DNA of 64,000 bases from positions 7,068,001 to 7,132,000 of the forward strand of contig JANJGN010000035.1 of the NCBI GenBank assembly GCA_026770705.1, given 5' to 3'. Position numbers and translations under genes: made by a program. How positions within the stretch are numbered: the first letter of the stretch is position 1; every line of letters begins with the position of its first letter. The notes under the pieces are model-generated. The model worked only from the letters and a program-made list of their open reading frames with translations. It was not told the origin of the DNA and did not search any database. The stretch is from Isurus oxyrinchus (lineage: Eukaryota). Positions 4,865 through 60,176 of this stretch are shown in pieces.

Positions 4865-5051
4865 ATTAAAATCTAATACCCTAACACATCATTGTGTAGA
4901 AACTCTGAGACCTGCGCCTCAAGCAAATGATTCAATTACAGAGGTAGACTTAATTAACGATCGTCAGAGCGGCGAACATGCCAACAGAATAACTGAAAAA
5001 CGTTTTTTTGCATTGTGCTGCCTAATGCAGAGGAGCAGGAAGCTCAAGGAA
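4865..5051 (+). pseudogene. Candidate exon X1 of the unidentified + strand repeat-exon gene
   Basis: Acceptor TTTTTCTACCGTCCAG| and donor GAA|GTGAGT; open frame LKSNTLTHHCVETLRPAPQANDSITEVDLINDRQSGEHANRITEKR... Splicing it to X2 in this frame meets stop codons. Confidence 0.45.
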
Positions 5052-5284
5052 GTGAGTTGAGCCTCTATCTGAATCATGGAGAAAATTAATGATCTATCAA
5101 CATGTACATATATCCATGCAGGTTTCCCTTAATAATTATCTTAATGAAAAAATTTCATAATTAATTTATAGTATTTCTCACCGCCCTACGGAAAAGCAAA
5201 TTCATTTAAATTGATTTCACAATATCGCAAAATACGCGAAAGGCATTAATTGAAATTTTGGTAATTTTAATAATATTTTTTCAG

Positions 5285-5369
5285 GTTGATAAACAATCAG
5301 TATATTGCAGACAATCGACAAATTCTGAAGTTTGACGATCATTTGGGTAATTTCGCTGCAATTACTGCG
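5285..5369 (+). pseudogene. Candidate exon X2 (85 nt)
   Basis: Acceptor ATATTTTTTCAG| and donor GCG|GTAAGG. One open frame (LINNQYIADNRQILKFDDHLGNFAAITA); the 0->1 frame that would join X1 to X3 has two stops. Confidence 0.45.
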
Positions 5370-5930
5370 GTAAGGAAATGTATTTTTAACATGGTTATTG
5401 CTTCAAACATGTTTTTTTCAGTTAATATTACATCAAAAATGTAATATTGCAAAGCAGACCCGCTTATAACAATATGGCCGAAATGTGTCCAGGGAGTAAG
5501 GGGTGGAAGTTGGGCATCACAAATACGTGTAAACTTAGGCACGTGAATTTCCCTATAAAGCCAAAGATGGCAGCAGCCATGTTTTCAACAATTAGCGATC
5601 AAATTCGTGAGTGTCGTTATCTAAACCCTCAACAAAAACATTGGGAGCTATGAATTAACGCCAGAAATTTCACGGGTTGTATTCGAACACTAAAATTCCT
5701 TGCTAATCTCGTAGAAACCTCCCTTTGTAGCCTATCTACAATGCACTGGGGATAACTGGGGAATTTTAATCAGCGTCTCATATTTCACAGGTGGGTTTTG
5801 GTTATTTGTTGAAATATTATAGATTAATAGAACGCGATTTCTTCATTAATAGGCATAACATTTTATTCCAACATATTGTTTCATTTTGTGATTGTGAACA
5901 TTTGTTCATGAAAAGTGTTTTTTTTTTCAG

Positions 5931-6134
5931 ATTTAGCTGCTGTTTCAGTTGATGCTCATAAGTTTAAGCAGGTCTGGAAAAGCGACAAAAATATCAACCT
6001 TGAATTGTCCAATAGTTTAACAAGTAAACGTCTGCCAAACAGGAAGGAGCCCAGCAAGGTTTAAACAGAAACAGAGCAAAGCAGTTAAATAAAAAAAAAT
6101 TAGGAATAAAAAAAACAAATGAAGTTGGGCAATG
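5931..6134 (+). pseudogene. Candidate exon X3 (204 nt, phase 1->1) with in-frame stops
   Basis: Strong acceptor GTTTTTTTTTTCAG| and donor ATG|GTAAGC. Reads DLAAVSVDAHKFKQVWKSDKNINLELSNSLTSKRLPNRKEPSKV*, then three more stops in an A-rich stretch. Confidence 0.5.
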
Positions 6135-6249
6135 GTAAGCCTTTACGGATAATGCATTTGATTCGCTATTGAACTGAAGACTTTAGGGATGAAACAAAGG
6201 AATACTGGGGATGGTGGATATCTGAAATGTACGACAATGTATCGAACTA

Positions 6250-7360: not shown

Positions 7361-7498
7361 AATCAAGAGGAAAGTGGTTCACTCACAAGCATGCTCATCT
7401 CAGAGAACAAAGTCACCGAATCAGAAGGGTATTGAGTAGGCATTCATATCTGGGGGAAGAGGCAACAAGCGCATGTGGCAGACGCACAGATACTTTGC
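7361..7498 (+). pseudogene. Divergent B-type exon (B0, 138 nt)
   Basis: Starts TAG|AATCAAGAGG like B2 (CAG|AATCAAGAGG) and ends C|GTGAGATTA like B2/B3/B5. Open as phase 1->1 (ESRGKWFTHKHAHLREQSH...DTL); stop in the phase-0 frame (NQEESGSLTSMLISENKVTESEGY*). Confidence 0.55.
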
Positions 7499-14330: not shown

Positions 14331-15390
14331 AACATTGCGGTTGGATATTCAGTCTCTGACTGCACGGATGCATAAGGGTGAAGCAAATATAATCCTTAAT
14401 TATGTTCATTTCCCTCTTCCAAATGATAATTTCCACAGCCTCGTGGTCCAGGGCAAAAATTACTATGTTAGTAATTTTAATCACTTCCATTTAACTGTAA
14501 TTATTCAAGCGATTATTTATATTTCTCGTTGAGCGATGAATGTTTTTTTTCCTCATTAGCGGTTTTGTGTCCCTTTGTTGCTTTCTCTCCAATACTCGAC
14601 CTTACTCTTATCCTTCTAGGCATTGGCTCTAAATGAGTTAACATTTATTTTGATATCCTGTTTTGTACTAATAATATGCTTATCTTCACAAACATACGAT
14701 GGGATCATAGCTATGTTTTCATTTCAACGTTTTTTTTGGCTGAATATATCGTACATTGTTGTTTTACAGGCAAAACCACGCTTATCCTACTGTCATAATT
14801 TCATGTCTTTAGTGGTTATGTTTAGCAACAATTTCCTTTTACATGTTTCCCTGGTAGAAGTGATGATTTGATGTTAAAGATGTTGATCTGTTGGAAGATA
14901 TTTATTTACAGTAACACGTTTCACATTATCTTGGGAAAAAAAAACATAATCTGAGATTATGGTCCTTGAAAGGTCGCGCAATATGAAACAAAATCTTTTT
15001 CTGCCCATTGTCATTTTTTTTTGGCAGATTGCATTTGTAACCTTTAACCTCCCATGCACATGAAATCGCTTAGAAACCGTGGCTAACCTGCCGTTATTTT
15101 CATTGGAAGTAAATATGCGTTCTATCACAGATCAATGTGCTAATGACACAGACTGGCGATGAGAACAATTGTGTGCAGGTTAATGTAATGGCAGTTGGAA
15201 GATTAAGAAGAAGCCCATTTGAAAGGCAGAATGGAGAATGCGCAAAAAATGCAGTTACGGTAGTTGCTCCATGTTTCCCTTCTTTTTATGAATTAGTTGA
15301 TATAGCACAAGCAAATCTTTTGTTCACCATCAATTATCTTGCCGGCTGCTGTACCAACAACGATGTTTTTGCTCCAATTCTAATGCATAG

Positions 15391-15554
15391 GGGAATATAA
15401 TACTGGACTTAAATGAAGTGAGTTGAAAGGCACTAAGATGCACCATTCCAATGCTGCAGAATTATATCATTATGGTGATCATGCTCAAACAAGGATGGGA
15501 CATGCGGATAACAGCAGTACACAAGAATGCCTCAACAGTCAAGAAGAAAATGAG
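15391..15554 (+). pseudogene. Exon A1 (164 nt, phase 1->0) with one in-frame stop
   Basis: ATGCATAG| ... GAAAATGAG|GTACAT. Reads EYNTGLK*SELKGTKMHHSNAAELYHYGDHAQTRMGHADNSSTQECLNSQEENE; TGA at 15414-15416. Confidence 0.7.
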
Positions 15555-18500
15555 GTACATTATGTAAAAAAATAGACATTGACCTTCGATCAAACCTTTT
15601 ATTTATCTGCACGTAGTGTATGCAATTTGTCCTTAAGGGAAATTGAGTATATTCATGGATTACAAAAATTAGTCAAGTGGTGGCTCAAACATTAATTTTA
15701 CTTGGTTGCTTTCAGCACGTCGTTTTGTGTCATTACTTTGTAAACTGGAATGGGAAATATTCCAATAATGCCATTTGTTGATTTTGTGCTAGTGATCAAC
15801 AGCCCCTGCACTTCTGTTTCCATGGGGCAAATGTGCATAGCATCTTTGCGCAGAGAAGAGTCCGTGCAGAGAAATCCTCTCATTCCTCCTACTATGCTTT
15901 TTGAAGTTGGCCCTGCAATCTAATCACCTAAAGTGCTATGTCTTTTCATATTGAAACACCCTCTTAGGCAGCGTTTCACAACTTATGACAAATTGCAGAA
16001 AAAAATATATTGCCGCACATTATTCTGGAATTTCTCGTTCATATGTGTAAGGCTATTTACACTGGTTCATCTGTCAAGAGATAATGAGCATCACGTCTTA
16101 TTTAATTTTCTGATCGAATATTGTACAATAATTCCATATTACCTCAACCTCTTTTAGTCCAATGAACATAATCCGAGCTTCTGCAGGTTAACTTTGAAGC
16201 TGTATTCCACCCTACCTTGAACAAATTGTAAGTGTCCTCGAAACCTTTTCATATATCTTTGCATCATTCCCAAAATGGAAATGACTAAACTGGATGCATG
16301 AAACTACTTGAAGACAAATCAAACCTTTCCTGCTTTCAGATAAAACACACCTCTGTTTTTCAACTCAATGTGTCAAATTGCGAAGCGATACATTCCCATA
16401 TTCTTGGTTAATTGCACTCTTAAAGAGTCCTGCCAACATCAATGAAATGCATCTCAACTAGCTGATCCATCTTTCTTGGAATGGTCTTTAGAATGTCCAA
16501 ATTCATTTCTCTCCCTGTCACTTTTACCAAAATGCATCGCCATACAATCGTAAGTATTAAATTTCATCAGCTGCAAGTCTTACATTTCTATTTGGCTCAG
16601 TGCTTTTGTCATTCATTCTATTAGTGACATTTGCAAAAGTTTATTTCAAAACAACTTGATGTATCTACCTTGGTTTCCCATACAAGGCTCTAAAACAAAT
16701 AATCCTCTTCAATATGATAATGACAATTCTTTATCACGAGCCTAGAACTTGTTAACCGGTGGTAATTGTGGTATCAGTTAATGAAATACATTAGGCAATA
16801 ACAGAGCAGTTTAAAAAAAAAATCCGTATTCGAATATCATAATTAATTGAAACTGCTCCCGAAGTTTGACACTTTTTTTCATAATTATACTACTGAAAGC
16901 CTGTACACGACGGGTGGTTAGCGAAGTATCTTGTTATTACTAAGCATGATGTTACACATCGTTCTGAGGAAGCTAATAACATGTGATACTTTTCACCTGT
17001 ATAGTGGCATATCTTACTGCCTGTAAGTAGATTGCAAGCCCACATGAAAAGGATCCATATTTATTCTAAGCATAACGAGGCATTCCAAAACATTTTCTTC
17101 TGTAGTTCTCATACCATGTTTATGTAATTTTTCATACCAAAATGCACATATGCCACATGGGTTTAGAACTGCAGGGAGCTTTTCATCACTAATACGAAAT
17201 CAACCAAATAACCTTATTGAAATAATTTGCATTCCAATTCACAAGATCTGTTCCACCAACTTTCTCCACTTTTAAAGATATTCATTTCAAGTACATTTTA
17301 GTAAGTATACACCGATAAACTGTACTATTTATATTTTCTAGCTTTCTTCTCTACCTCCATGCAAATATAATCTTCTTTATCCCTCTTCGCGCCTCACACA
17401 GATGCCCTGAATCTGCTGATTACTTGCACGTTGTAAGAACTTTCTTTTTCTTTTTTGTTTCCGTTAATGTAAAATTTCTTCCAAATCGAATATTAGAGCT
17501 AAATATCATTTTATCATATCCTGCATTTCCAATATCAACTACAGCTTTTGTCCTGCTTGTCACTTACGAAATTTATCTGCTATGCCTTGTATGCCCCTTT
17601 ATTTATTTAATGTTATTGTGTTATAGTCTTGCACATCGGCATTCGTTAATTTTCAGTCGGGTTTGATTCCCCTTCCTCCAAGAGCAGTATTATTCTAATA
17701 ACGGAAGCACTCTAATTCAGAATGCCTCTTGCTTTTGTCCACGACTTTTGTTAACATACTTACCCGATGACAAAATAAAAGGATCCTGACAGGATTTGGT
17801 ACTCAAGGCGCATCTCATTCTCCAGAAGCAGCTCCTCGGCTTTAAGAACTTCATAGTTGCAACATGAAAGCATTGATCAAAGATGTACAAAAGAAGACAT
17901 ATTAGTGTTGCTCATATCACTGATTCCCCTTTGGTATGTGTCGAAAAAATAATTTACTCTACTTTGTATGAAGAAAATTCATTTTCTTACAGCTCAGGCC
18001 GCTTAGATATTCATTGCTGACTGTAAGGTAAAACACAGCGAAATTTCCAGCACAGATTGTTCGAATAATTCTACAGGATTCGGACACTGAAAAACAGGCA
18101 GTGCAATATCGAAATATTTGTTCATTTCCCAAAAACGTAATGATCCTCGGTTCGCCAATAAAAAACAATCTTATCATAAATTGTGACTGTGTCCCCAAAT
18201 AGAACTCTTACATGTCTCCAAAATGTCCTTTACAAGCGATTGCACATTCAACATTACTCAAATGTTTATTCACATGTCACTTCCTTTCTCATCAACCAGT
18301 TTTTGGCGACGGTCTATGTGTCAATGGTTGCTTTAGATTCACATTTAATCCGACGAATTTGCTAAATTTCCTGGATCTCATCATCACACGGCTTTACATT
18401 GATTATCTTTAAATCCCTCTTGCCATTTGATGAAATTCTCTTCACATCCATGCAGATTGGTTTAAAAATTATATATCCATATGTTGCTTCCGAGCCTCTT

Positions 18501-18783
18501 TCCCAGAAATTTCAAATATCTTTGAAAAAGGTGGTCAACAATTTAGGAACTCTGTCATTAAATTTCAAAGCCATAATAATATCAAAGACATTTTTGTAAG
18601 CATTGCTATCCAAGTTATATGATGAAACATGAGACTGGTCAAATCTGCATTCACTGTCACGCATCCTCCGTGATTATCATTTCAGCCATTTCGTCTACTT
18701 TAATTGGGGTATTACGATAATCAATGTGCTGAAAAACTGGCAATACAATGTTAATATGCATGTTCCTATCTTGCGATTTTCAG

Positions 18784-18931
18784 AATTAAAAGGTGAATAC
18801 TTCGCCTGAAAGTATGCCCTGTATGGAAAATGCCGATATCATTGCACTCAATAACACGACCAATGATGGTCCAGAAGAAAAACAGCAAGAAAAGAAAGCC
18901 GATAATTTTGAAGGAATCAGACAAGTGTCCG
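18784..18931 (+). pseudogene. Exon B1 (148 nt, phase 0->1) with a stop at codon 2
   Basis: TTTTCAG|AAT TAA AAG GTG..., donor CCG|GTGAGT. Reads N*KVNTSPESMPCMENADIIALNNTTNDGPEEKQQEKKADNFEGIRQVS. An in-frame AAG| at 18792 would skip the stop. Confidence 0.75.
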
Positions 18932-20379
18932 GTGAGTTAATGTTTTCTCTGAACCAGAAAGAAAATCATCTAATTGTTTAAGTCTCTTCTCATTCTATTG
19001 TAGTTTTTGGCTCCACTGCGATGTTTATTTCAAATCTGCACCGGAGTCATAGAGCATGATACACATGCTTAGGGTGTTTCAGATATGTGACCTTGAACCT
19101 CCTTAAAACCTTACAATCAAGAATGTTTTACTCCTTCTTTGGCACATTGATTTTTACAGTTAACGGCCTATTGCTTCAGATTGTCTGATTCTAAAGAGCC
19201 ATTTGGTGGTGCATATTTACGCTTCGTCCAAATATGCGCACACACTTACATTTCTTTTATCAAATGGAAAAGAACATGCACACCACAAAACGAGCATTCA
19301 CCAGGTGTCACACATTTAAGTCCAGAGAATTTTTGGCAAAACTGATATGATGTTCCTCTCTGATTCTCCTAATACTTGGTTCCGTCACTCTTCCTACAGA
19401 ACACTCCACCCCACTGTTCTTTTTACTTGTAATGTTTCCTCACTTGTTATCACCATTCTTCCCAATCACGTTGAGTACACACAGCTGTCTCTTTTGAGAA
19501 CCATATTCAAACGATCGACAGCAGAAAACGGCTGAAAAGGCTCATGTCTTAACCACATCAGGAATTCATGTAAATGAGGATCGACTATGTCAGCCTTTCA
19601 CCATTTTTCATACTTAGATGTGCAGGATTCCCTTTTCACTAGCTCAGCACTCGCACACTCTCATATTGTCCAATAAGGAAATGGAAGCTGACATGAAGCT
19701 AAGGGTTGCCATGATGAGACCGCCATGTTTCCCATCGTTTCTACTGAGGCATTGAGAATACCCTTGTCTGCTCGACTACCTCCAATCTACAATGCTGACC
19801 ATGGCTCTATTCCATCAAATGGGGAGAGATTGTAGCCTTCACTTTGCTCAAATTTGAATGTGCACATTCCTGTGGTTCGAAAATTCCAGCATCCAATGTC
19901 GGTCTGAGAGAGCAAATGTAATCTAATATTTGTCCCAACTGAACCCTTCACAAACAGCTCCCCCTCCCCCCCGCCCCCCCAAACCTCACACACCTCACTG
20001 AGGAATCCGACCATTGACCACCTGAATATTGAGCTCGCCCACAGATTTCCAACTCCATTCCCAGCTTAACATGATACTCTATTATTCTTGGATGGCTATC
20101 TCCTAGACGTCCCTTTACCATGACTTTGTTGATTAATCCTATCCCGTTACTCATAACCAAGCCCAGGGTATGCTTCTCCTGGTAGGCTTTGGAATGCACA
20201 TCTTTAAGCAATTACCCCAATTCAATAAGATGAAACAATTTGCCGGCTAAAATTTGCCAGTCTAATTCTGCCAGTATGTAAGTCGTTTAAAGTAACCCAT
20301 GAAAATTATCCTCCAGATTTTGTTTTCAATTGATAATAGAATTGTTCCTAATCAGTAAACAGAACATGTCTCTCATTGT

Positions 20380-23100: not shown

Positions 23101-24168
23101 TGAATTACCTAATCAACGTAAGTTATCCCTGGCTGCTCAAAGTGGCTGGACGTTCAACTTCCCTGCTTAACAGTCATTCCCCCGCGTCGCTGAAGCACTT
23201 CTTGTGTCATATGTTAGGTGTGGTGTAAAAGTAACGGTTAATATATTCCTAAAACCTCGTGAACTTATTATGTTTAATTATGATTTATACAGACATGGGC
23301 TCTAAACCAACAATGATTACTTTAGCCATTTTGCTCACTTCCATTTAAATGTAGTACTTCGAGCTATCTGTCTTTATTTACGTATTCCTAGATTGTTCAA
23401 TCCCTCTATTTTTGTAAAATCTTGACCCTTCATTCAATTTTTAGTTAATTTGTTAACTTAATTTGTTCCAATATTGTGCTTTCCTCAAGAAAAAACAATG
23501 AAATAATGTTTTTTTTTTAATTTAGCGCATTGTTGGTTTACGATATGCACTGTTTTTCTTTTGCTTTCAAAAGAACTTTTGTTTGTTTTTTGTTTGATGG
23601 TCAAGACATTTAGCAAATAGGTTTAGCCACATATTTCTCAGACATATTAAGATGGTGGACACATTAATTTGAATATAGAAACAAAATATTATAGACATAA
23701 TTTGTTCTTAATAACAAACATGAATTTATCTAAATTAAAACAATTTGGAAATACAGACCTTGAAATTTCACCTCACCTGACAAAAAAAATTTTAGGGACC
23801 ATTGCATTTATGTTGCCTGATTCTATTTGTACCGATTATCCTCCAGTACGCAGACCATCGATTAGATGCACTAACTAACTTGCTGTGCATTCCATTGGTG
23901 GGAAAAGCCTTTGCAATTACAGATAAATAGGTTAGCTAGCAGAAGGCGATTATATAAATGATGTAAATATTAATGTACTTGCGGATCAAAGGGAAAGAAG
24001 TTAGCCAATTGGACAGAAAGGATTGCAAATTCTTGAAATATGCAATTATGATATTTGTTTTCCCTCTTTTTTATGAAGTACTAGACATAACAGAAGAGAT
24101 CTATTTGTCCAGCTGTCAACATCTTACAATAAAAACACCGATTTTTTTGTTCCAATTCAAATGCATAG

Positions 24169-24340
24169 TGGACGATAATACTGGACGTGAAATACCATAG
24201 TTGGCAGGCGCTCACACAAATCATTCTAATCATGCAGAATTAGATCCTAATGCTCATCATGCTCAAACAAGCGAGGAACATGTGGTAATATCAGTGCAGA
24301 AGGGCCCCAAGAATGGCGACCCAGCGGAACAGAATATGAG
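24169..24340 (+). pseudogene. Exon A2 (172 nt) with a stop and a frameshift
   Basis: ATGCATAG| ... ATATGAG|GTATGT. Reads DDNTGREIP*LAGAHTNHSNHAELDPNAHHAQTSEEHVVIS...; TAG at 24198-24200; one nt shorter than the 173-nt A4. Confidence 0.7.
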
Positions 24341-25804
24341 GTATGTTTGATGAAATAAAATACAGTAAACTACGATCGAATTGGTTAGAAATATTTTGTT
24401 TAACTGCAGTCACTTCATGTAATTTGTACTTAAGGCTAAATAAGTATAATTCGGAATGTAACTACATTAGGTATCTTAGGCTTAAGTGTGGCTCAAATAT
24501 TAATTAGGTTTCCGCTTTCACCAGTCTTTTGCATCGGTCACTTTGTAAACTGTAATAGTAATTATTCCAATAATTGTATTTGGTCGGTTTCGTACTATTG
24601 ATCAACAGCCTGTGCACTTCCTTATCCATGAGAAATGTGCATTGCATAATTGCTGCACAAAAACCTGCCGAGAAATCCACTCAGTCCTCCCACTTTGCCC
24701 TTTGATGTTGTTCTCGTAAATGTATGCCCTTTCACGCAGAAACACCCTCGTTTGCGGTGTTTTCCCAGTTATGATGAATTGCAGCATAACAAACATTTTT
24801 CCTCACATTATTCCATTAATACTTCTCCAGAACTTTAAATACATTTACCCATGTTACTCTGTCTACAGCTAATAAGCATGATGTCTAATTTACCTATCTT
24901 ATCTAAGACTGTCATAATCGTCCTAGACTCTTATCTAATCGTAATCACTCTTACTCCAAAGAAAATAATCTGTGCTTCTCCAGCTGTAACTTTCAAACTA
25001 CATACCAGCGTTCCTGGAACAAATCGTAAATTTCCTCGAAAACCATTCCTTCACATCCTTACCAAAATGTAATTGTCTGAACTGGACGCAGTAAACTGCT
25101 TGAAGCCTGACTTTCTTGAATACAGAAGAACACCACTGTTTTCGTACTCAAACTTTTCAATTTGGGAAGCTGCACATTCACCTTTTTCTTGGCTAATTGC
25201 TGCCTGAATGAGTTCTGCCAAATTCATTATCATGCATCTGATCTACCCGACCCCTCTGTCCCTGAATGCTGTTTAAAAATGGGCAACATAATTTTTCTCC
25301 CAATCACTGTTACCAAAATTCGTCGCTTCGCAATCCACATGATACATTTCTTGTCCCATATGTCTTCCATTTCAGTTCGGGTCAGCCCTGCCGGCATTCT
25401 ATCTATTTACCTCACTTGCAACATTAGTTTATAAACAACTGTGTATTTCCACCTTGAATTCTAATATAAGGCAAAATATCGAATAATGCTATTCTGAGTG
25501 ATGCAGACAATTATTTACAACGGGCCTCCATATTGTTGACCATTATTTAAGGTGGTTTCAAACAATCAACTACGTTAGCAGATCGCACTGGCTTTTATAA
25601 ATTCGTCTCGAACGTCTAAATTAATTAAGGCTGCTCCGAGAGCGAGACACTTTATTTCATAATAATACCACCGAAGCCCTTTAAGGCACTGATGTTAAAT
25701 GAAATAACTTGTTTTTAGGAGGTATGATTATACATATATTTCTGAAGAATTGCCACTCTATACACGTGACAATTTTCACCTGTATAGAGTGCATATCGTA
25801 TTGT

Positions 25805-26745: not shown

Positions 26746-26755
26746 TATATATTTA

Positions 26756-39524: not shown

Positions 39525-42500
39525 TTGTAGTGGGTAGGCATTAGAGAGTTGACTTTGATCGAATTAGTTAGAATCCATTATTTGACTATGCTGAGTTAAT
39601 GCACTGTTGTTAATGGTAATTGAGCATACTTGTGAATTCAACTGCGAAACCTAACTTTGGTTAGAGTGCTGCTTGCACTTAAAGCGTAAATAGTGGCTTT
39701 CCCAACAGTCTTTTGTGTCGTTACTTAGTAAACTGGAATGGTCGATTTAGTGCTACCTATCAACAGCCTCTCCACTTTTTAACAATGAAACGCATATGCA
39801 TATCTTCTTTGCTGCAGAAGAATATTCTCTACAGGGAAATCCATTTATTTATCCACGTATGCTCTTTCAATATGACCAAGCAAATGTATTTTCCGCAAGA
39901 GTTACATTGTTTCTTCCTGAAACTATTTATTGCATCGTTACCCATCTTCGTCGTTGTAAACCTTTTACAATTTATGATATATTGCAGCATAGAAAAGGTT
40001 TTACCTCACATCATTCTGGTATTTATTATCTTGAAATTTAAATCCATTTACCCATGATGTTCTAGTAGTAGCGACTGAGCATCAAGACCTATGTACTTAT
40101 TCTATTGAAAATTGTAATATTCGTATGTGTTTCTTATCTAAACCCAAAATCCTTTACTCCACTGAAAATACTCAGAACTCCTCCACTTAACTTTGTAATC
40201 ATCTGACACCGCTCCTGGAACATATCAGATGCTTAATCTGCACCATTCCACGTACGTTCACATCCTTTCTGAAATGTCGTTGTCCGACCTGGACGCAGTT
40301 ACATAATTAGAGACAACACAGAACTTTCTTGCTTGCAATAAAATGTTCAATGCCTCTGTGCTGGATGTGTCAATGTATGAAGCGCTATGTCACGATGTGC
40401 TTTACTAATCGTCTCTCAGTAAGTCCTGCCAACTCAAATGTCATGCAATAATACTACCATACCACATTGTCTCTGAATAAACCTTAAAATTGTGCAACAT
40501 TAGTTCTCTCCCAAACACTCTTCCCAAATGGCATCGCCTCACAATTTTCAATGTTATCTTTCATCTGCCACGTCTTCCATTTCTGTGTGTTTCAGTTCTG
40601 TTGCAATTGTTTCTATAAGCTGCACCTGCAACATCACTTTAGAAACACCTCTCTGTTTCTAGCTGGCATTCCAATTCGAGGCCTTGTATTATATATTCTT
40701 ATTCAAGCTGATTCTTTACCAAGAGCATGGATTTTGATTATAATTCTTTAATGTAGAACCGAATAATCAATTAGATTGACTATTCATATTGTTGTCTATA
40801 AACTCGTACTCGACCCTCTTAATTAATTGATAACTCTACCAGCATATGCCACGTTAGTTCCTGATTATCGTGCTCAAACTGTTCACACCACTGATGTTAA
40901 ACAAAATAACTCTTTGTTACTAGAAATGATGACACAACTAGACATAAAGTTAATAACATCTGACGAGCTTCACCTGCATGTAATGCATATTTTATGAAAA
41001 TTTTAATAATTTTGCAGTTGTCTATAATTAAATTGCGACACATTATGAAAATGATACTTATATATTATAAGTATAGCTAGCCATCCCAGACCAATTTTTC
41101 TTTCAATATTCAGGCGATCCATTCCCAGAGCGAATATCATTTATTATATCATTCAAATATCATTTCCAAAGTAAACACCAATATAATATTATAATTATGA
41201 AATGTAATCTTGTACTCTACCTCCATTCACATTGCATCCTCTTTTCCGTCTGAGCACCTGCCTCAGATTCTTCCAACCTGCTGTAATTTGAATGTTGTGA
41301 GAACATTTTTTCATTTCGTTCCACTTCATGATAAATGGCATTCACTTCTTAGAATATCTGTTAGGTATCCTTAATCATGCCCTTGAGTTTCTGGCTCAGT
41401 TTTAGCATTTGGCCTGGTTCTCGCTTTCAAAAATCACGTGAAATGCATTGTGCGCCCGTTTTTTTTATTGAATGATACTTATGGTACATTATTAAACACA
41501 AACATTCGTTCAGTTTTACTCGTGGCAGATTGCTCTACAGCCCAGAGAAGTATAGTCTATCATCATAAGAACCGTGCTTTTGATTGTCCGTTCTTTTTCT
41601 CCACTAATTTTCTTACCGAGTAATCTGACGGCCATTGTTACTGAAAGAATTGCCCAACTGTGAGTCAGTCCCAATGGTGCTCCTCTTTCCCCAGAAATAG
41701 CAGCTGCGCCAATATTTGTTTCCTAGATGTAACAAGAACGCATTAATCAAGGAGGTTAAAACTAACACCTCTTACTTTTTCCTTTAGAACTAAACTTTTT
41801 TTTTTCATACGGCTCTTACTGGAAGATCTAAAACTTAATTAAGGATATGCAGTTAAAGATGTCCAATTCTTTTTTTTTTCTCTCACTCAATCAGGCTGCC
41901 TCGGTATTCATTGCAGGTTGTAAAGATTTTTTTTTAAAAAGAGGCAACTTTCCAGCCCATCCCTTTCGAATAATTCACAGGGATTAGGATACAGAAAATA
42001 GCATGGATAGTCTTTTTTTCTTGTGCCGAATGCATTATTTGTCCCAATATGGCAGAAAGGCAATTTTACAATGAACTGTGAATCTGTCACGAAAGAGAAC
42101 TCTTAAATCATATCTCCGACCTGGCCTTTGGGAGCTCTTGCACATTCCACTTTACTCCAGTGTTTAATCTCATTTCCTTTCCTTTCTCACCCGTTTGCTT
42201 TTGCGTAGGTTTTAGTGGCCATGGGTGTTTTAGGTTCATATGTAATTCGACGAATTGACTTAATCTCCCAGCTTTCATCTCTCCTTAATTTTCTGTTGAT
42301 TGGATATCCTTAAATCACTGTGGTCCCTTGATGCTTCTGCCATTGACTTCCAAGCAGAAAGGTGTGAAATAATTTTCACATTTTTTAACCCAATTCCAGT
42401 CTAAACACAGTGATTTTTGAAAGCGAATTTCAGCCGTTTAAGAACTCTGCAACCTCCTCTCAATTAAATTTTATTATAAATGGTTTTGCCGTAATCATTG

Positions 42501-42673
42501 ATATGAATGTTATTACAACGGAAATTGGGGCTATTTTTATTTACCTTCTTTATTGTGCGTCCTGCCGGTGGAATTTTAAAGACGTTTTGCTGGTTCCTTT
42601 TGGCAATTGCCTTAATGAATGCGCTCACAAACTCTCAGTATCAATAATTGTGTTTCAAACTTGCACTAATCAG

Positions 42674-42821
42674 ATTCAAGACGTGAATGCTCCACCGGAA
42701 TTTAAGCCCCATAGGATTAGAGGCGATATCAGCACGTTCAAAGACACCATGAATGAATCTCAGGAAATAAGACTGCAAGGAAAGAGTGACAACAGTGTTG
42801 AAGGAATCAGGACCAGTTCCG
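42674..42821 (+). CDS. Exon B4 (148 nt, phase 0->1), apparently intact; unknown hydrophilic repeat protein
   Basis: CTAATCAG| ... TCCG|GTGAGA. Reads IQDVNAPPEFKPHRIRGDISTFKDTMNESQEIRLQGKSDNSVEGIRTSS with no stop. Expression not shown. Confidence 0.5.
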
Positions 42822-44160
42822 GTGAGATGATGTTTTCTTTGAACTGATGAATCCACCAAGATGGATCAACAATGCAGGAAATATCACGTGGTAGTTTCAG
42901 TCTGTTTTCATTCTGTTGTCGCTTTTGGCTCGACTGAGTAGTTTAATGGTTACCCATAGCTTTGAGGTAGAGCATGTTTTATGTGCTGAGAAAGATTTAG
43001 ATTTGGTGTCTTGACTCCGCAACAAAGATTACATTCAAACATGGCTCAGCCGTATCTTTATCTTTTGCTTTCTCCACCTAACAGCCTATTCCATCAGGTT
43101 GCCTGATAGTCATGAGCCATTTGGCGGCATATGCAAAAGCTTGCTCTGAAGTTGTGCACACGGCTACATTTTTTCCAATATGAAAAAGGACATGGAGGGC
43201 ACACAACGGGCATTCATCGTTTGGCACCGGATTTCTGGGCGAGCCCATCTGATTCTCCTGATACTTGTTTTTCTCACACTTGCACCAGAAATAATCCACC
43301 GCTTTGTCCTTTAATATGCCAACTGTCCGCACTCTTTATCAACATTCCTCCAACTCACATTGACCACACACAACTCTCCGTTTTGGGGCCGACACACAAT
43401 CAGTCGACAACAGAATGTGCATGTATACGCTAATATGTTAATGCCTCCACGAATCTATGTAAATGAGGATCAACTATATCGTCCTATTCCAAGCTTCTCG
43501 TGTTCCAACAACAGGAGATATTTAATTTTGTTCTTCCAAGAGAAAAACAGAGTCTTTTTTGTTTGATTGTCATACAGTCTTGGCTTTTAACAAAAAGATT
43601 AGGCGCATATTGATCCTACCTATGTCGGTAGTGGCCACAATAATTTGATTTTTGAAAGATATTATAACAAAACTCTTTTTCCTACGACCGCATTTCAAAT
43701 ATCCTCAAAAAGCCATAATTTCAGTTCATTGTCTTGAATTTTCGCGCTATCTGAGACGTAACATTTTTCAGACATTGTCCTTCTATGTCTGATTGTGTTT
43801 GAAATCTTTATCATCACGTGCGCGTAAGATTGGTTAGATGCAATACCTACTATGCCGTGCAATCCATTACAAGGAAACCCTTTTTAAATGACAGGTAAAT
43901 AGGTTGAACAAACAAAAAGTTGATCATATCAATGATATATGGATTGTTGGACTGATAATTTGGAAAACGATAGGCGAGCCAAATAGGCATGCTGCATAGT
44001 AAATAGCGAAATTAGCATGCTCATTTGTAATTTGACTTTTCCTTTCCTTGTTCTGTTTATTTGATATTGAGCAACTGAATCACTTGTTCGGTCTCAAATG
44101 TCTTCTCAGTTACTATAATAATTCTGATGTTTTTGTTCTAATTCTTTTTCAAATTCAAAG

Positions 44161-44327
44161 ATGATATTAGACATAAAATACTTGATTTGACTGGCTCTCA
44201 GACTCCTCGATTCAATGATGCAGAATTTCATTATAAGGGTGATCAATTACAAGGAAGAGAGGGACTTGTGGATAACAGAAGCGCCGAGGAGCTTGAAAAG
44301 GGACAATCCCATCAAAAAGAAAATGAG
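44161..44327 (+). CDS. Exon A5 (167 nt, phase 1->0), apparently intact
   Basis: TTCTTTTTCAAATTCAAAG| ... GAAAATGAG|GTATAT. Reads DIRHKILDLTGSQTPRFNDAEFHYKGDQLQGREGLVDNRSAEELEKGQSHQKENE, in frame with B4. Expression not shown. Confidence 0.5.
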
Positions 44328-47110
44328 GTATATTGGGCATACAATAGATATTTAACTACAACTGAGCTGGCTAGAAGTATATTGTTTATCTGCACTACGT
44401 GTATGCAGTTTGTACTGAAGAGTTGTTGAGCATAGTAATAACTTCAACTTCATTCCTACCTTAGGTTCTTGTTCAACTCAAAGGTGAAATTTAAGTGGTA
44501 GCTTTCACCACAATTATCTGCGCCGTCACTCTGTGAAATGCAATTTGAATTGCTCCAATAAAATTATTTAACCCATTTAGTACTTGTGATCAACAATCCC
44601 TGCACTCAATATCCATAAGACATATGTGGATAGCATCATTGCAGCACCGAAGGTCTCTTGACATAGAAATCCATTCAGTCCTCCAGCTTGCTCCATCAAT
44701 TTGGCTCTGTGAATGTATGCACATCGAGTGATATCCCGTTTCCTACTGATATTACTGAGCGCCACGATTGCCAACACCCTCGTTATCAATGTTTTACAGG
44801 TTATGACGAACTGCAGAATAACAGCAATTTTATTCACATTATTCAGCTACTTCTTGCTGAGACCTTTAAATCTGGTTACCTAGTGGTTCTAGCAACTGCT
44901 AATGAGTTTTACTTTTTATTTATTGATCTCAGCTAAAACTGTAAAGGTCGCACATTTCTCTTATTACGTTTGAATATCTTTAGGCCAACGAAATTAACCC
45001 ATGCCTCCCCAACATAAATTTGTAACTATATTCTGCTGCCCTTGGAATAAATGACAAATTCCCTGTAGTACCTTTCAAATGTCTTCACATACTTCCTAAA
45101 ATGTATTTGCCTGAACTGGATGCAGTAAACTACTTGAAATCTAACCGGACCTTTCTTACGTCCAAGAATACTTCAAAGATTTTGTAACCAGCATGGCTAT
45201 TTAGAAAGCGCTAAATTCTCATATACTTTGCTAATTGCTCCTCAATAAATGCAGCCAACTTCAACAACATGTATCTATACTAGCGGACCACTTTGCCCCT
45301 GAATACTCTGTTAACACGAACAACGTAATTACTCTCCCTATTCCTGTTACCAAAATGCATCATCTTGCAATTTTCAGTATTCATTTTCATCTGCCTCATG
45401 TCTTCCATTTCTGTTCGACTCAGTCCTTTTGCGAATCTTTCTATACACCACACCTGTTACATTACTTTAAAACCAACAGTATGGTTCAAACTTCCTTTCC
45501 AGTACAAGGCTCAATATAATATAATCTTATTACAACTGATATTGACAATTCTATATCACGAACTTTGATTTTATTTACTAGTTTTTAATGTGGTTTCAGG
45601 TAATCAATTGGAATAGCTGGCCTTTATAAATAAGTGCTCGAGCGTCTTAAGTAATTGAAACCCCCAAGGAGTTTTGCACTTTAATTCGTAATTATAGTAT
45701 TGTACCCTTCACACCACTGATGTTAAAGGACATAATTTAATGTTACTAGAAATAATTTTACACACATTTGCGAAGATGTTAATAACACTTGGTACGTTTC
45801 AACTGCTTAGAGCATATGGTTCATTGCCTATTACTAGACTGGGAGGCTAAAGGTAAAGGAGACTTATTTACTCTCTGCATGGCTAGCCATTCCAACATAG
45901 TTTTAGCTAATACTCATACAAGCCGTTCTGACAACCATCTCCACTTCTGAAGACAGTAATATCATTTTTTTTTCAGATGTAAACCGCAATAAATAATCTT
46001 ACCGTGTTCCCTTCCTCCATGCATGTTTCGCCCTTTTTTCCCTCTTAACACCTCCCTTCCAACCTGCTAATTATATATGTGTTGTGAGGACAGTTTTTTT
46101 TTTCCCTATTCCTTTCATGTTATATGCCTTCCAACTTCAACATTATCTATAGGCATTATTTTATCACACCCTTCACTTCCAATCTCATGATTCGCATTTG
46201 ACCTTGATTTGTGTTGATCAATAATGTTCATACAAACATATATTGGTGTTTTCCCATTCCAGTGAGCCATCTTTGATATGTGTTTTTCAGGAAGACCTAA
46301 AATATAATTGGTAATAAAGCGTTAAAAGTGAATCTGCTTTTGTATGCCAGGCCGCCTTAGTATTCATTGCAGCCTGTATAGATGAATAAAAAGACAACTT
46401 TCAGGCGCTGTTCATTCCAATATTTCCTTGGGATTAGGACACAGGCAATAATCGGTGTACAATGCAAGCATTTTGTTGATGTCACGAACAAGTACTGTGG
46501 CCGATTTATCCCAAAAATTTAAAAACTTACATTGAGTTGTAACTTTTTCTACATTCCAAAATCTTAAACCATATCTCTGGCATACTGTTTAGGAGCTATT
46601 GCGCATTCAAATTTAATTCAGTGTTTAGTCACATTTAGTTTCCTTTCTCACCAATTGTTTTTATCTTGGGGCTATGGATGTTTTACGGTCATATTTATTC
46701 TGACGACTTTACGTAATATCCCTGATTCATCTCTCCCAGGTTTTACTTTGATTCATTATCAGTAATTTACCGTTCAACATTTGATGGCTCTCTGTCTGAC
46801 TTCCATGCAGGAACTCGTCAAATATATCTGCGTAAAAACATGTCCCCAGAGCAAAAGGAGGTTTTTGAAAACGATATTCAGCCTGTTAGGAACGCTACCA
46901 TTCTTTTCACTACAAAGATTTTATCAACAAATGTGTTTCAATCACTGTTATGAATGTCATTATTAGGAGAATTGGGAAGGCTGTACCTTCGAAATCATGC
47001 ATCCTACCTGTTGCACTTTTCAGTTGTTTTGTCTACATCTATGGGGAATTGCGTTAATCAGTAACTGACAATGCAATGTCAATTAGTGTTATCAATTTTG
47101 CTGTTATCAG

Positions 47111-47256
47111 GCACGAGGTGAATGTTCCGCCATCAAGTAAGCTGCGTGTGAATAGCTGCCATATCGTCGCATTCAATGACACCATGAGTGACGCGCTAGA
47201 AGAAATGGTGCTAGGAACTATTGCCCACCCTTTCGGAGGAATGAGAGGCGCATACA
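47111..47256 (+). pseudogene. Exon B5 (146 nt), 2 nt short at the acceptor end
   Basis: TTATCAG|G CAC GAG GTG ... TACA|GTGAGA. HEVNVPPSSKLRVNSCHIVAFNDTMSDALEEMVLGTIAHPFGGMRGAY is open but out of phase with A5. Confidence 0.68.
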
Positions 47257-48527
47257 GTGAGATTATGTTTCTTTTTTAACTGAAATATCCATCAGTATGA
47301 GGATACAATGCAGCATACAACCTCTCATGGTTTCAGTCTTGCCTCAGGCTGTTGTAGTTTGCGGCTAGACTGAGAGGTTTAATTATTATCTGTATCGTTG
47401 AGTTAAAACATTTTATGTGTGCAGCGGATTCTTCAGATTTGATGATTTGACTCTGCAACAACGCTTACATTTATGCATCATTCAAAAATGTCTTTTTCCC
47501 GTGATTTCTCCAACTAACAGCGTATTACATCAGATTGTCCGATTGCAATGAGACACTTGGGGGCGTATGTTTAAGCTCCGTCTAAATATAGACACATGAT
47601 TATATGTTTTTGCAATTCGAAAAATAACCACACGACGCGCATTCATCAGGCAGCGACACTTTAAATCCAAAAGGATTTGGCGAGGGTGATCTGGTCTTTC
47701 TCTCTGATTCTCCTTTTACCTGCTTCCCTCCCTCTTACAGCAGACCACTCCAAAGCTTGGTACTTGGATTTTGAAACGTATTACCATCCTTGCAATTCAC
47801 GTTGACCAAAAGCAGCTATCCATTCCGATGTCCATATTCAAGCAAGGGATACGCCTCAGGCTGCACTGGAGTATTGTTTGAACCTGCAGTAGAGTGCATC
47901 ATTTGCGATTTGGTATTTCAAGACCTTTAAGTTTTAAATTAAGGGTAAACCTATATCTAAAGTTGACTTTCTTTATAAATTTAACAATAACTTAAAAGCG
48001 GCTGCTAGGTTTTGAAAAAGATGCATTTTGGCCCGGCCTTTCAACAGGCCTGAACCATGCTCTGCTTGCTTTTACAATTAGATAGTGGTTTTATCAAGTT
48101 TTTAGAAGCTAGGTTACTTGAGTCTAAAAGTAGGCTATTTAATAGTCTGACTTTGTCGGCACTGGGGTGCTCTGTTTAATGCCTTAGAGTGTTTCACTTG
48201 GAGGTTCGTGATTGAGGGAGTTTGGTGAGATGCGTCGAGGTGCTCCTATTGTTTGCTACCTTTGTTCAGGAAGAAGAGCGGTGGCCTTGGTAAGTATAAA
48301 CTGGTGGGTAAACTGTAAAAATTACATATATTGTTATGGTTTTGTTCATGGATTTAACTGACAAGTGGCATGTTGAAGGAAAATTAATTGTGGATATAAT
48401 AAGGTAATATAAATAACAAAAAGTAAGAAAAAGCTGACAACATAGAAGTAGATTTAATGTGTGGCAGCATGGCTCAGTCAAGTAGAGTGTGTACTATCTG
48501 ACCACACGTGAAGGAAGCATTATTGAA

Positions 48528-54700: not shown

Positions 54701-56379
54701 GTTGGTGGAGTCGGAAAATATGCGTTAGAAGACGTTCAATGATGGAAAGTTTGAGGTATTGAACTTCGTTAGGAGGAAGATGGCCAGATAATACAAAATA
54801 TGGGATGAAATTTTGTAAAGTGTGCAAGACGTGGGTACGCATCTGCATAGATCAGTGAAGTCGATAGGGCAGGTGAAAGAACAGATAATCAAGCATATAA
54901 CATCCTCGGCTTTATTAATGGAGGCAAGAAGTACAATAGCAGGGGGGGTTATGCAAAATTTATGTAAGTGAATCATTAAACTCTGTTGGAATATTTTGTA
55001 AAGTTCAGGGCAGCATATTATCTGGAGGAGGTGAACACATTGGTGAGAGTGCAGGAGAGGTTTACAAGAATTGCCATTGAGAATAGAAACTTCAGCTCTG
55101 AGGATAGTTTGTAGCCTTTGAGACTATTCTCCTTAGATAGAACATGGAGGAGAGGAGATTGATAGAGAACTACAAAATAATGTTGGGGATGGGATGAATA
55201 GTTAGGGAGAAGATGTTCACACTCGTAAAAAGATCATGAACGACAGGGCAAGGTTACAGCATTATTTGCAAAGTGCAAAATGCAACTTTTTCACAGGACG
55301 TGTGGTTCGTTTCTGAAAGGAACTGCCGGGACTTTTGATGGAAACAAATCTAATCGATGATTTCAAGAGGGAAGTAGATGATTATTTGAACAGAAAAAGT
55401 TTACAGAGTAATGGTACCTTGTCATTATGCTCATTTGGAGAGCTGTTGCCGACATGATGGGCCGAAACATGTCTTTATGTGACGTTAAGACTCTGTGATA
55501 TTCTAATTAGTCTCTCGTCTATTAGCTACTCAATGAATTTATGTAAACGAGGATCGAGCAACTCAGCTTTTCCAGGCCTCTAACTTATAAACCCGAGAGT
55601 ATTATTTTCTACTATTTCTGCACTATCATACTATCGTACTGCACAATAAGGAAACACAAACACCTATGAAGCTAAATATAGGCAACAGGACTTCGCCATA
55701 TTTCCACTCGCTTCTGCTGAGGTGCAATCATGGCTGCTCTACTGACACCCATCCACATTACCGACCGTTCTGTATATCCCACAAAGCCGGGGAGATCTTA
55801 CCCTTCTCTATAAGCAAATATGCAGCCCACAGACTCCCGTGGCTGGAGAATCCCGGTGTTTAATTTAATTCTGACTGAAGAAATGTTATCTAATCGCACA
55901 TGCAAAAAGTTGTCCTATTATGCTGTTTCAGTGCTCGTTAAACATCTATTTTTTGCAGAATAAAAAAAATTATCTTGCCTACTTCCTTGTCAATAGCCTC
56001 CAGAATGTTGAAACCCTCAACATATTCTGCTGTGATTCTTCCTACACTTCAGAACGCATAGACACAACTAACTCAGGCTCTCATTGATGGGATAAAGTCT
56101 CGAAACTAGAAGTCGTGAAGATTATAACACATCCAAAGTAGTTGCACGCTTCCTTATGCAATGAACGTAAAGCTATTTACAGTTCACTTAGTGTCGTCTC
56201 GCCAAAGCTCTATAGAATTTCTACTAGGGTTTTTCATTTTTGCACTTTAGAAGCCATGTAATCAATGCCAGCATGGCATTCATTTTCCTAATTTTTCCCT
56301 GTACCTGCATGTCAACCTTTGGCCTTACTTGTATGAATGCCGGCTTTTTTAATACCATCACTTAAAAGAGAATGTTGCA

Positions 56380-56470: not shown

Positions 56471-57456
56471 ACCTATTTTAAATATATATTCCCGTGGAAT
56501 GTCAGTTGATTGTGATTGCCACTCCGCTTGTGCTAACTTAAAATAAAACTGCTCCTATCTCACCCGAATTTCCGACTCAGACCTCGAGAGGGTTCCCGGG
56601 GCCTACAGTCGAGTGCAGCTTGGTCTAAAGTAAGTATTTATTACGTCAATATCAGCCATGGCCATTGATCAGGACGATATGTATTGGGGCTGAAAGTATT
56701 TTAATATGGCGTGCTTGGGGTTGCTTGGCCAGTGCTATAGCTACACAGAACCTGGAAGTCGTTCCAATTCTTATACATTATTTGTGGTAATTAATCCGAT
56801 AACACAGTCGGATCTACCCAAAGTTTTGCATGAAACTCTCAGTTTAGGGTGTTTCCCAGAGCAGCAAAATTCGCAGGAAGTTTGAAATTCTGGGCAATCG
56901 CTGTTCAATGCTGGGCCTGAATTTTACACTCCAAGTTCGGAATCTGTCGCATTTTGGAGCGTGTTATGGGCTGCTTTATCTGCCGGCGCCAGGTTTTTAT
57001 TTTGTCGTTACGCTAGATTTCCTTTATAACACAAGCACTAGGGTCTGAACATCGGGTCCTGTCTGCATTATTTAAATTTCGATATCGAAGGTAATTGAGG
57101 CATTTAAGCAACCGATAACGCAGTGAAAAGGCTGTAGAATGGTGCTGTGCCAAGAGTATGCCAAATGATGATTTTTAACATTTTTTTTTTAAGGACAAGC
57201 CTGTTTTGGCGGTTTTTGAAACTGCAGCTGAGGCCACAGTGTCAGTTTTGCTGATCGAGCACAGGGGTACCTGTTCATTTAAGTGGACAGAAGGACCTTA
57301 ACTTAATTATTCATGAGGAAATTGTCCTCCAATAAAAAGCGCTCATCAGCTAGATCATTTCCCAATACATTACCAGGGGTGAGAGATGAAACGTGTAGGA
57401 ATCAGATGGGAATTTTTTTCTCAGCTGCCGACACAACATCGCTGAAGGTGGAGGGT

Positions 57457-57478
57457 GGGGGGGGGGGGGGGGGGGGGG
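57457..57478 (+). repeat. Poly-G run (22 nt)
   Basis: Direct observation. Confidence 0.95.
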
Positions 57479-58029
57479 AGTGGTGGGAATAATTATCAAG
57501 AGGAGGAAGAGGAGAAGTGAGAAGATGCAGGAAGTACCTGAAGCTAAGGATTATGTGGTTCCACCGGAAGGGAGCACAGGAGAAACTGGCCCCGAGGATC
57601 AGGGGCACCTGAGAAACTCTCAGCGGAGACGCCACAATCTTGTGCTGGAACAAGTTTATATAGGCAGAGGAGCAGCTACTAGCAACTGGCGTCATGAGGT
57701 GACTGAGACTTTTGTGCGTCTGGGACCAATTCCATGGTGTTACATCGACGCTGTTGATGTCGTGAGCCCCTATCTCCCACACAGACTCAGTCTGCCTGAG
57801 CTTCCTTCTCTTCCCAGCGCTCGGAATGAGCTGGTGATGTTTATTTTACAGTGTATGCACGAAGGTACCAAATCCTGCCTCATTGAATCTCGGGGCAGCT
57901 TTTTGCGTTCTGTAATGCCTCTCCCCTCGCTCTGTTGGCGGCTTTCCATCCTAGATATAAATCAACATGTGGTGGCCTGCCCACATTTAAAGATCCTTGC
58001 ATCTTTGAATATTGACAATAACAAAGAAG

Positions 58030-59020
58030 CAAAATAAAGACAGTAGATATAGTTAAATGACCAGCAGCCCTGGTAGCATCTGTGGATGTTTGGACGGATT
58101 TACGATCGCAATTATGTGACTTCAGAGCTGAAGTGAGATATAATTGTTATGTTGTTGAACAGAGCAGGTGAAGCAGGTATATCAGTGATAGGCGGGAGCT
58201 CAGGACAGATTTTACTAATATGCTATAGACACAAAGCAAAGGGAGTGTTAATGATAATGTTAAAGACTAAGACAAGTCTAAGATGTGCATATAAATTAGA
58301 TAGCACAATTTGTGAATTGCAGAAGGAGGGCCAACGCTTTTCAAAAGAATAATTAAGTAAAGGTTACTGACTGGTCCTTTGCTGGGAATGGGTTTGCGAA
58401 AATAATAACCTGGAAGACAGAGTTATTGATCTGAATTTGTTGAACTCATGTTAATTGCAGAAGGCCGACTAATGCCTAATTGGAATATGTTTATCCATTT
58501 GCTTTGCGAATCTACGGGAGCAGCACCTCATCTTCCAAGTAGGCATTTATAAGCTCCTGCACTTACCGTTAGGCTAAACATATTCAGATCATGAACTCAG
58601 CCCACCATTTTTTCTTTCTGTTCCCAAATACTCCCCTCCGCAGAGAAAGCCCATAACTTAGGTTCTGCTTCAAGGAGCCAATAGACTTTTTCTCGATTAA
58701 CACAACCTTATATTTGATCTTTGTGTCACCATTAGTACGTTCGTAAATCATTTGAACTATAAATACTGCCCATTTTGGCTTGTGCTCTTAACAGCTGTAA
58801 CAAGATGCTCGAAATTTTATTTTGGCCTTCTTCCTCCACCCCCTCTCTTCAACATACTAACACCATGAAATATCTACATCTCTTCAGCTCTAAAGAAGAG
58901 TCACATGGACACAAAAGTTTTACCCTATTCGTCTCTCCACATAAGTCACCTGCTCTGCTGAGAGTTTCCAGAAATTTTAGGTTATAGCTCACTTTTCCAA
59001 TATTCGCTGTATTTTCGTTT
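58030..59020. mobile_element. Old Penelope-like remnant with tails in inverted orientation
   Basis: Antisense tail at ~58030-58130 (CAGCAGCCCTGGTAGCATCTGTGGA), sense tail at ~58890-59020 (CCTGCTCTGCTGAGAGTTTCCAG), and a GIY-YIG C-terminal remnant EQHLIFQVG at ~58518. Confidence 0.65.
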
Positions 59021-59991
59021 AATGTTTGCGAAAATGGAAATCAACTTATGGTATCAGAATTTATTATGCACTAATGTTGACTCTGAATAGTAGATGCACA
59101 CAATTGAACATCTGATGGGTCAACTGACAAAGCCAAGTACCAGAGGGTGCGTTACGAAGCTAGCCATTACCTTTTTCATGTTGCCTTTATCTTCTGAGAC
59201 AGAACACCAGCACTCTTTGGGCGAGATGACGATCTGTAAGCTCTAATAGTAACTCCTGTCACATACCACATTATTGGACGTGCACTGATGGATTCCCAGA
59301 CATCGGAATTCCGAAAACTTCTGGGTGCGGCACCTGTGACAGATGAGCGATTGTATTATTCCACCTCCTATGACAGCATTTTCTTAATCAGTTACAGGTC
59401 CTTTTGGCAAAATGTTACATTTAGTCGTGGCGGAATTGTGCAAAATATCCGGCCCCTGTGCAGTTGATACACGACACTCAATGAATTCGTCAAGATCAGT
59501 GATAGAGACGAGAATTATTTGTGTGCTGAAAATATGCCCTTGAAGATCTTTAGTTATAGCCTGCCAATTTGTAATCCCAAAAACAATCGTATTCTGTGTT
59601 GGGATTCAGTTAAGCACTATTCCGTCGATGGGTGTTTAATATTCGAAACTTCATGACAATTTGTAATCGATATGAACCTTTGTCTGATGCCTTCTCGTTT
59701 GCAATTTCAAACTAAAAATAAGTGTGCATTAGAAACTGTCTTCTATCTATGTGGTTAGTTCTGGCATCGGAAGAAAACGTATTTTCTGATCCGTATTTCG
59801 TTTCGAACAGCTTTGTTGATTGCCTGCTCATTGTATGATTTTCAGAATGCTTTGTGAATTGATCCTTCTTTTGCAGCGTATTTGTGTAGAGTTTCGCTTG
59901 TATTTTTGTGTACAGTGGTATTACTTTTTTTAAATTTTCAAACACTGGTATCGTTTTAGAGAAGATTTGACTTGATAACAAATTCATGCAG

Positions 59992-60176
59992 TGGTGGAAG
60001 ACTACGGTCTCTCGCAGATGGCGGTTTCCTCTACTGGCAGTCAATGGCATTCCAACATCCGTGCGACTTCGGGGAACACGTGATCAAATATAATTTGCCG
60101 CAAAATAACAACAAAGATGCTTTATAGAATATCATCCCTTCCAGTGCACTGAAGAATACTGTCCCAATTCAGGAAC
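59992..60176 (+). pseudogene. Probable divergent sixth A-type exon (A6), decayed
   Basis: AATTCATGCAG|TG GTG GAA GAC reads VEDYGLSQMAVSSTGSQWHSN (cf. VEDNTG in A4, TGSQ in A5, HSN in A1/A2). A CCTTGAA anchor lies ~454 bp upstream (~411-429 bp in other units). 3' end uncertain. Confidence 0.4.

Follow-up and report, generated by a model that had tools for sequence, protein, structure and literature searches.

The duplication of a phase-symmetric exon set preserves the reading frame of the gene in which it occurs. Genes of the ANKRD36/ANKRD26 type carry repeated exon sets in their middle part and evolve fast. In primate NBPF genes, each Olduvai repeat (DUF1220) corresponds to two exons, a doublet that multiplies by duplication within the gene (PMC9313022), progranulin consists of two-exon modules multiplied by recurrent tandem duplication (PMC4527844) and Piccolo b of teleosts owes its repeats to a lineage-specific amplification of one phase-0 exon (PMC3484663). 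A survey ties phase symmetry to protein disorder and internal duplication, and names duplicated 1,0-0,1 exon pairs in tau (PMC3632108). Here we analyze a stretch of 64,000 nucleotides (nt) of contig JANJGN010000035.1 (positions 7,068,001 to 7,132,000, forward strand), called the window below and numbered from its first base, in which two exon-like segments, A and B, alternate on the plus strand.

We consider this locus, with a probability of about 0.75, to be an old array of exon pairs for an acidic disordered spacer that was selected on frame and splicing only and is now mostly decayed. The locus and its combination of a neutral amino-acid rate with decay are new; the duplication mechanism is already known. 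Known exon-pair expansions are mostly young or well conserved, whereas this array appears old, devoid of detectable relatives, selected for frame and splicing and subsequently decayed. Genes of such a type evade open reading frame (ORF) tracks and homology-based annotation.

Tandem units and the exon pair

A preliminary description of the window had proposed the tandem duplication of a two-exon module with complementary phases. Self-comparison of the window confirmed a tandem repeat structure, seen as five collinear plus-strand units of 5-6 kb each across 14350-56370:

U1, 14350..19930, + strand: tandem unit; tail resumes at 22841-23367 beyond an insert
U2, 23250..29200, + strand: tandem unit
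U3, 29650..36140, + strand: tandem unit, interrupted by a retroelement insert
U4, 38880..43510, + strand: tandem unit, shortened at both ends
U5 main part, 43511..47780, + strand: tandem unit
U5 tail, 55510..56370, + strand: set apart by a 7.7-kb insert containing pieces of long interspersed nuclear elements (LINEs)

An A and a B segment lie in every unit, at the coordinates first proposed. Profile searches returned exactly these ten matches (E <=1e-28); the profiles being built from the ten copies themselves, this shows only the absence of further close copies.

A1, 15391..15554, + strand: phase 1->0; AG and GT retained; stop at 15414-15416; 9-nt in-frame deletion
B1, 18784..18931, + strand: phase 0->1; splice sites stronger than in any other of these exons; second codon (18787-18789) a stop
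A2, 24169..24340, + strand: AG and GT retained; stop at 24198-24200; 1-nt deletion near 24285
B2, 27530..27678, + strand: 1-nt insertion near 27617
A3, 30691..30860, + strand: open frame; acceptor displaced 3 nt downstream from the homologous position; no donor left
B3, 35358..35492, + strand: 2-nt insertion near 35372; 15-nt deletion
A4, 39352..39524, + strand: open frame; homologous acceptor lost, in-frame AG at -9/+6; donor lost
B4, 42674..42821, + strand: intact, phase 0->1
A5, 44161..44327, + strand: intact, phase 1->0; acceptor displaced 6 nt downstream from the homologous position
B5, 47111..47256, + strand: 2-nt deletion at the exon start

The introns were duplicated along with the exons, the entire unit being copied. 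Across the 10 pairs of units, the introns share 62-68% identity; exon identity is 55-77%, and the introns hold 168 indels. The unit tree, ((U1,U3),(U2,(U4,U5))) with supports of 98 and 100, combines terminal branches of 0.22-0.27 with inner branches of 0.02-0.05, and the U4-U5 pairing recurs in all five segment trees. This topology fits two successive duplications, one of a two-unit block and a later one of the last unit, probably in a burst; the retroelements were inserted after unit duplication. A low mutation rate has been reported for one shark, 7e-10 per base per generation (PMC10587355). Should the host be a shark, such a rate would make the burst very old; we claim no date for it.

To assess exon origin, we took all intervals of 60-300 columns that run from an AG to a GT in the alignment of the five units and scored them for splice matrices, stops and frameshifts. 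The scan ran blind to the coordinates proposed before, its weights having been chosen after A and B had been seen. The two best of 2843 plus-strand candidates were B (18784-18931, frame 0, 148 nt; score 24.2) and A (15391-15554, frame 2; 21.0). The third plus-strand candidate reached 13.0, the best of 7278 minus-strand candidates 13.4 and reversed alignments 17.0 and 9.2, and B and A again came out on top under all three other aligner settings. None of 210 block shuffles produced two scores of at least 21, and the best score reached 24.2 in two of them. The boundaries found by this blind scan, together with lengths and frames, give phases 1->0 for A and 0->1 for B, with about 105 codons per pair, as had been stated.

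Only 3 stops are found in A and B, against 13.2 expected on the tree (P 0.0009), and 4 frameshifts against 9.5 (P 0.04). All three stops lie within the first 10 codons, the remainder of A and of B containing none where 6.0 and 5.0 are expected. These stop tests were computed from the actual copies and not from a model-based ancestral sequence. An empirical control is milder: among overlapping intron windows free of stops, 3 of 85 and 4 of 135 show an equally low stop ratio. The B donor ranks first among the 248 GT sites of the unit and is kept in all five copies, and all ten B splice dinucleotides survive (P 0.006). The splice consensus announced for both segments thus holds for B (AG and GT in 5/5), whereas A keeps an AG at the ancestral position in 2/5 copies and a donor GT in 3/5. 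The blind scan, the shuffles and the stop depletion together bear out a tandemly duplicated, phase-complementary exon pair and make an exon origin of A and B very probable.

The same alignment yielded further candidates and observations. A third exon per unit was sought near 15100, at 16314-16590, 18190-18360 and 19400-19569 and abandoned, the scores being <=13-17 and dependent on the alignment. The stretch 18190-18360 and its copies are pyrimidine-rich with few stops or frameshifts, several indels of 3, 6 or 9 nt and no clear splice sites. At 19400 and its copies, downstream of B, a strong acceptor-like site occurs in all five units, with neither stable donor nor open frame. Compared with each other, A and B proved not to be homologous. 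Two sites hold inverted copies of unit sequence: 17141-17244 repeats 15738-15838, from its own unit, in inverted orientation (78%), and 25811-25922 contains two inverted copies of about 26971-27041 (81-84%). Both sit at nearly equal alignment positions in two units and are possibly templated insertions at a fragile site.

Selection, decay and competing readings

In sequence, the exons show no more conservation than the introns. Identity is 0.656 in A, where 269 overlapping intron windows give 0.648, and 0.630 in B, where 280 such windows give 0.647. Neither segment has a codon-position bias, all three positions being alike, and the ratio of nonsynonymous to synonymous rates (dN/dS) is 0.87 and 0.81 in the exons against 0.84 +/- 0.18 in 54 intron windows. 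After duplication, selection held the frame and the B splice sites, not the amino acids. Open frames with neutral amino-acid change would be explained by a spacer selected for length and charge. The acidic, low-structure character ascribed earlier to the peptides agrees with prediction: A1, A3, A4 and A5 have a net charge of -0.07 to -0.13 per residue and a FoldIndex of -0.12 to -0.29, while B1 and B4 score -0.21 and -0.10. Six of seven peptides thus lie between -0.10 and -0.29, when 464 stop-free stretches of the window average +0.18 and 8% of them fall below -0.1. AlphaFold gave no confident model for the A alignment, and its predicted local distance difference test score of 49.6, from just 5 sequences, is uninformative. 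The product would be a spacer set by length and charge rather than by sequence, and not a folded domain.

As delimited, 8 of the 10 exons are broken by a stop (A1, A2, B1), a frameshift (A2, B2, B3, B5) or a lost donor (A3, A4), leaving only B4 and A5 intact. Although AG and GT are retained, six exons carry a stop or a frameshift; a living gene should be able to bear these lesions only by skipping or trimming the exons. The frameshifts of A2 (-1) and B2 (+1) were considered as mutually compensating; the shifted frame hits a stop within four codons of B2. The B4-A5 junction, 42821^44161, would remove a GT-AG intron of 1339 nt with the frame open across it. A joint fit gives an unconstrained share per branch of 0.36 (0.19-0.62) and rejects a fully neutral history by 7.5 log units. 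At this share, uniform decay predicts 2.8 intact exons out of 10 and already yields an adjacent intact pair in 45% of draws; the intact B4-A5 pair is therefore no evidence of life. The preliminary description had gone further and seen a present-day repeat protein made of all the exons it listed. This is contradicted by the eight broken exons and the intron-like dN/dS, and two further members fare no better: a putative A copy at 59992 is spurious and a putative B at 7361 is a relic. Equal stop and indel densities in exons and introns, named there among the grounds for rejecting the exon pair, are not observed for stops, although the indels of B are undepleted.

A scenario can be proposed on these grounds. 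An ancestral plus-strand gene would have carried a single pair, A (1->0) and B (0->1), coding for about 105 residues of an acidic, probably disordered spacer. Because the pair begins and ends in equal phase, copying the 5-6 kb block of A and B keeps the frame. The block was copied, introns included, into five units, and an earlier copy would persist as the relic B0 described below. A two-unit block would have doubled first and the last unit next, in the short burst suggested by the tree. Selection then kept the frame and the B splice sites while amino acids drifted. The product would have served as a length and charge spacer, until constraint presumably lapsed over about the last third of each branch.

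Several observations weigh against an old, frame-selected and uniformly decayed array. The U1-U3 pairing appears in only three of the five segment trees. The splice matrices of the scan were generic, and one score of at least 21 arose in 11 of the 210 shuffles (3 of 70 using intron columns only), which leaves A by itself insecure. A lost its splice dinucleotides at the neutral rate (5/10 against 4.0), the B indels (4 against 5.5 expected) are not depleted and an intron stretch near 18190-18360 equals A and B in its low stops and frameshifts. With a FoldIndex of +0.20, the B5 peptide is predicted to be folded. Of the seven frame lesions, five lie within the opening fifth of the exon concerned (P about 0.009, seen post hoc), a pattern that uniform death does not predict. 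Finally, no first or last exon, no homologue and no convincing downstream exon within the window were found.

How far the decay has gone divides the readings. That the whole region is dead has somewhat less than an even chance. A living gene that joins B4 to A5 alone and leaves out all other exons in frame is rather unlikely, though possible. Equally tentative is a living lineage-specific gene in which spacer exons are born pairwise and die or shorten singly, their acceptors sliding in frame past new stops; selection would there, just as doubtfully, see only frame, length and charge, amino acids changing neutrally.

A more far-reaching version, which we hold to be improbable, keeps the accordion largely in use: shifted in-frame acceptors downstream would bypass the 5' lesions, with A2, A3, A4 and most of B2 skipped. 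One such frame, no more probable, would join A1-short, B1-short or B4, A5 and B5-short. It would account for the clustering of lesions at 5' ends, with exon cores stop-free against 11 stops expected, and for the 137 private amino-acid changes without a single stop in the six exons of U3-U5. All three A copies lacking the homologous AG have an in-frame AG within 9 nt (+3; -9/+6; +6), a 1-in-27 coincidence if they are independent, which the sister units U4 and U5 perhaps are not. Open in-frame versions exist for B1 (+9, acceptor at 18793), B5 (+7, 47118), B3 (+35, 35393) and A1 (+69, 15460), along with an open 28-nt version of B2 with a strong donor. These rescue acceptors are, however, weaker than the originals (B1 -1.1 against 3.9, B5 -4.2 against 4.2, A1 0.0 against 3.5, B3 -2.9 against 0.0), and for this reason we rank the reading second. 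In addition, in-frame AGs are frequent by chance, the counts have no null, the pattern was seen post hoc, and A3 and A4 possess no usable phase-0 donor.

It is very unlikely that the duplication was non-coding throughout, A and B being purine-rich stretches that resemble exons by chance. Such a view agrees with the match in identity between exons and introns, the missing codon-position and dN/dS signals and the searches that gave neither homologue nor domain; other stretches, whether purine-rich (15100-15250) or lesion-poor (18190-18360), are not exon-like. It leaves unexplained two top scores of complementary phase unmatched in 210 shuffles, the first-ranked B donor in five copies of five, a stop depletion that holds against the empirical control and the AG and GT kept in B0 despite about 48% identity. 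The least credible proposal is an intact gene with lesions due to assembly errors: four lesions are indels of 1-2 nt, the usual long-read error class, but three stops and five lost splice dinucleotides are substitutions, the exon indels lie outside long single-base runs and the 168 intron indels make real indels common here.

If transcripts showed the decayed array to be alive after all, it would offer a direct test of acceptor shifts rescuing exons from nonsense changes and, should the acceptors drift, would preserve within a single gene a natural record of how exons arise, shift their acceptors and die. If dead, it would be an ordinary but well-preserved gene fossil, whose loss could be dated across related species.

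Upstream relic and other features of the window

Features outside the ten exons are as follows:

B0, 7361..7498, + strand: old B exon, now a relic, with a stop at 7433-7435; the intron downstream of it is collinear to about 8000
Upstream exon-like segments, 4865-4943, 5285-5369 and 5931-5971/6058 (4865..6058), + strand: candidate segments of uncertain relation to the array
Retroelement remnant in U3, 31703..33066, + strand: GIY-YIG match, 13-bp target-site duplication

Position 7361 had been listed as a regular B segment. Its flanks mark B0 as an older relative of B: scored with them, it ranks first of 368 background windows (z 6.1). Identity is about 48% (47-49%), and both AG and GT are kept, whereas the exon body alone reaches only z 0.67 and contains the stop at 7433. 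B0 is open end to end in another frame (phase 1->1), the stop concerning only the B frame. The proposed A copy at 59992 has no profile match, the background scoring as high in 140 of 384 windows with flanks and 252 of 816 without. Farther upstream, the open frames at 4865 and 5285 (both phase 2->0) chain neither together nor with 5931 (phase 1->0). The 4865 segment is borderline as an A copy (z 3.15, one of 5 candidates tested) and an older A copy near 5033 was unsupported on testing. A degenerate four-base CCAT repeat of about 650 bases (6250-6900) separates this cluster from B0.

The window looks like animal DNA and is rich in LINE and Penelope-like remnants, repeat types that may point to a cartilaginous fish. 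We take the remnant at 31703-33066 to be Penelope-like. Decayed LINE copies at 8325-9563 (-) and 50416-51633 (+), 61% identical and in opposite orientation, form one family, presumably CR1-like; a sub-threshold RVT_1 match at 9206-9439 fits a LINE. From 6 to 48 kb the GC skew is negative; its sign changes to positive past about 48000, just beyond the last B exon. When the single sequence was scanned, the highest-scoring pair of splice sites (acceptor 12.8, donor 7.6) delimited 60680-60793 on the minus strand, 114 nt, open and devoid of Pfam matches. This segment is possibly an exon, either from a transposon or from a different gene.

Homology searches and comparison with known systems

The A profile gave 0 matches among 2246 candidates at E 10 in searches of proteins of 99-2000 amino acids. 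Against 1.84 billion representatives, the B profile returned 2 matches, both to repetitive proteins over 18-22 positions and unrelated on inspection. The segment 5933-6058 yielded no candidate in a homology search, and queries of the ESM Atlas with A5 and B4 stayed below the lead threshold (best 0.89). Pfam was run on 18 selected peptides and, outside the units, on 229/229 plus-strand ORFs (of at least 40 amino acids) and 70/230 minus-strand ORFs. It found no family, Olduvai included, in the six A and B peptides, in line with the earlier remark that no domain is recognizable; only GIY-YIG passed the cut-off, with 17 weaker matches below it. No ankyrin repeat, coiled-coil or other domain of the ANKRD26/ANKRD36 family was found in the 229 plus-strand ORFs, where short exons or gene ends beyond the window would escape. 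Rfam and tRNA scans of the window gave 0 matches. As a control, a search with the retroelement ORF of the remnant at 31703-33066 retrieved 46 relatives of 39-76% identity; neither an organism nor a curated (NCBI/UniRef) name was attached to any of them. Since this search reached no curated names, coverage of related annotated proteomes is unproven and the negative homology results are weak. No description of the locus was found in the literature, itself weak evidence for a locus with no gene name.

The likeness to the repeat genes considered at the outset lies in architecture. The resemblance to ANKRD36/ANKRD26 is an analogy taken from the preliminary description, with no homology found or claimed. 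Progranulin and Piccolo b repeats are domains with a cysteine pattern. A and B show neither such a pattern nor a conserved core, and the absence of any invariant cysteine from the two alignments examined sets them apart from granulin and zinc-finger repeats. As in Olduvai/NBPF, an exon-doublet repeat unit was expanded inside a gene, but here the A and B peptides have no Pfam match, both exons measure 148-173 nt when the first NBPF exon is mostly 52 nt, and the units are 62-68% identical and mostly broken when NBPF expansions are recent (PMC9313022). Like the tau 1,0-0,1 pairs, the array has a frame-preserving module, a predicted disordered product and internal duplication (PMC3632108). It differs from tau-type disordered exons in that its amino acids change at the intron rate and 8/10 exons are broken, with no sequence link found to any described protein. 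While it belongs by sequence, as tested, to none of these systems, the array appears to work like Olduvai, granulin and the tau pairs.

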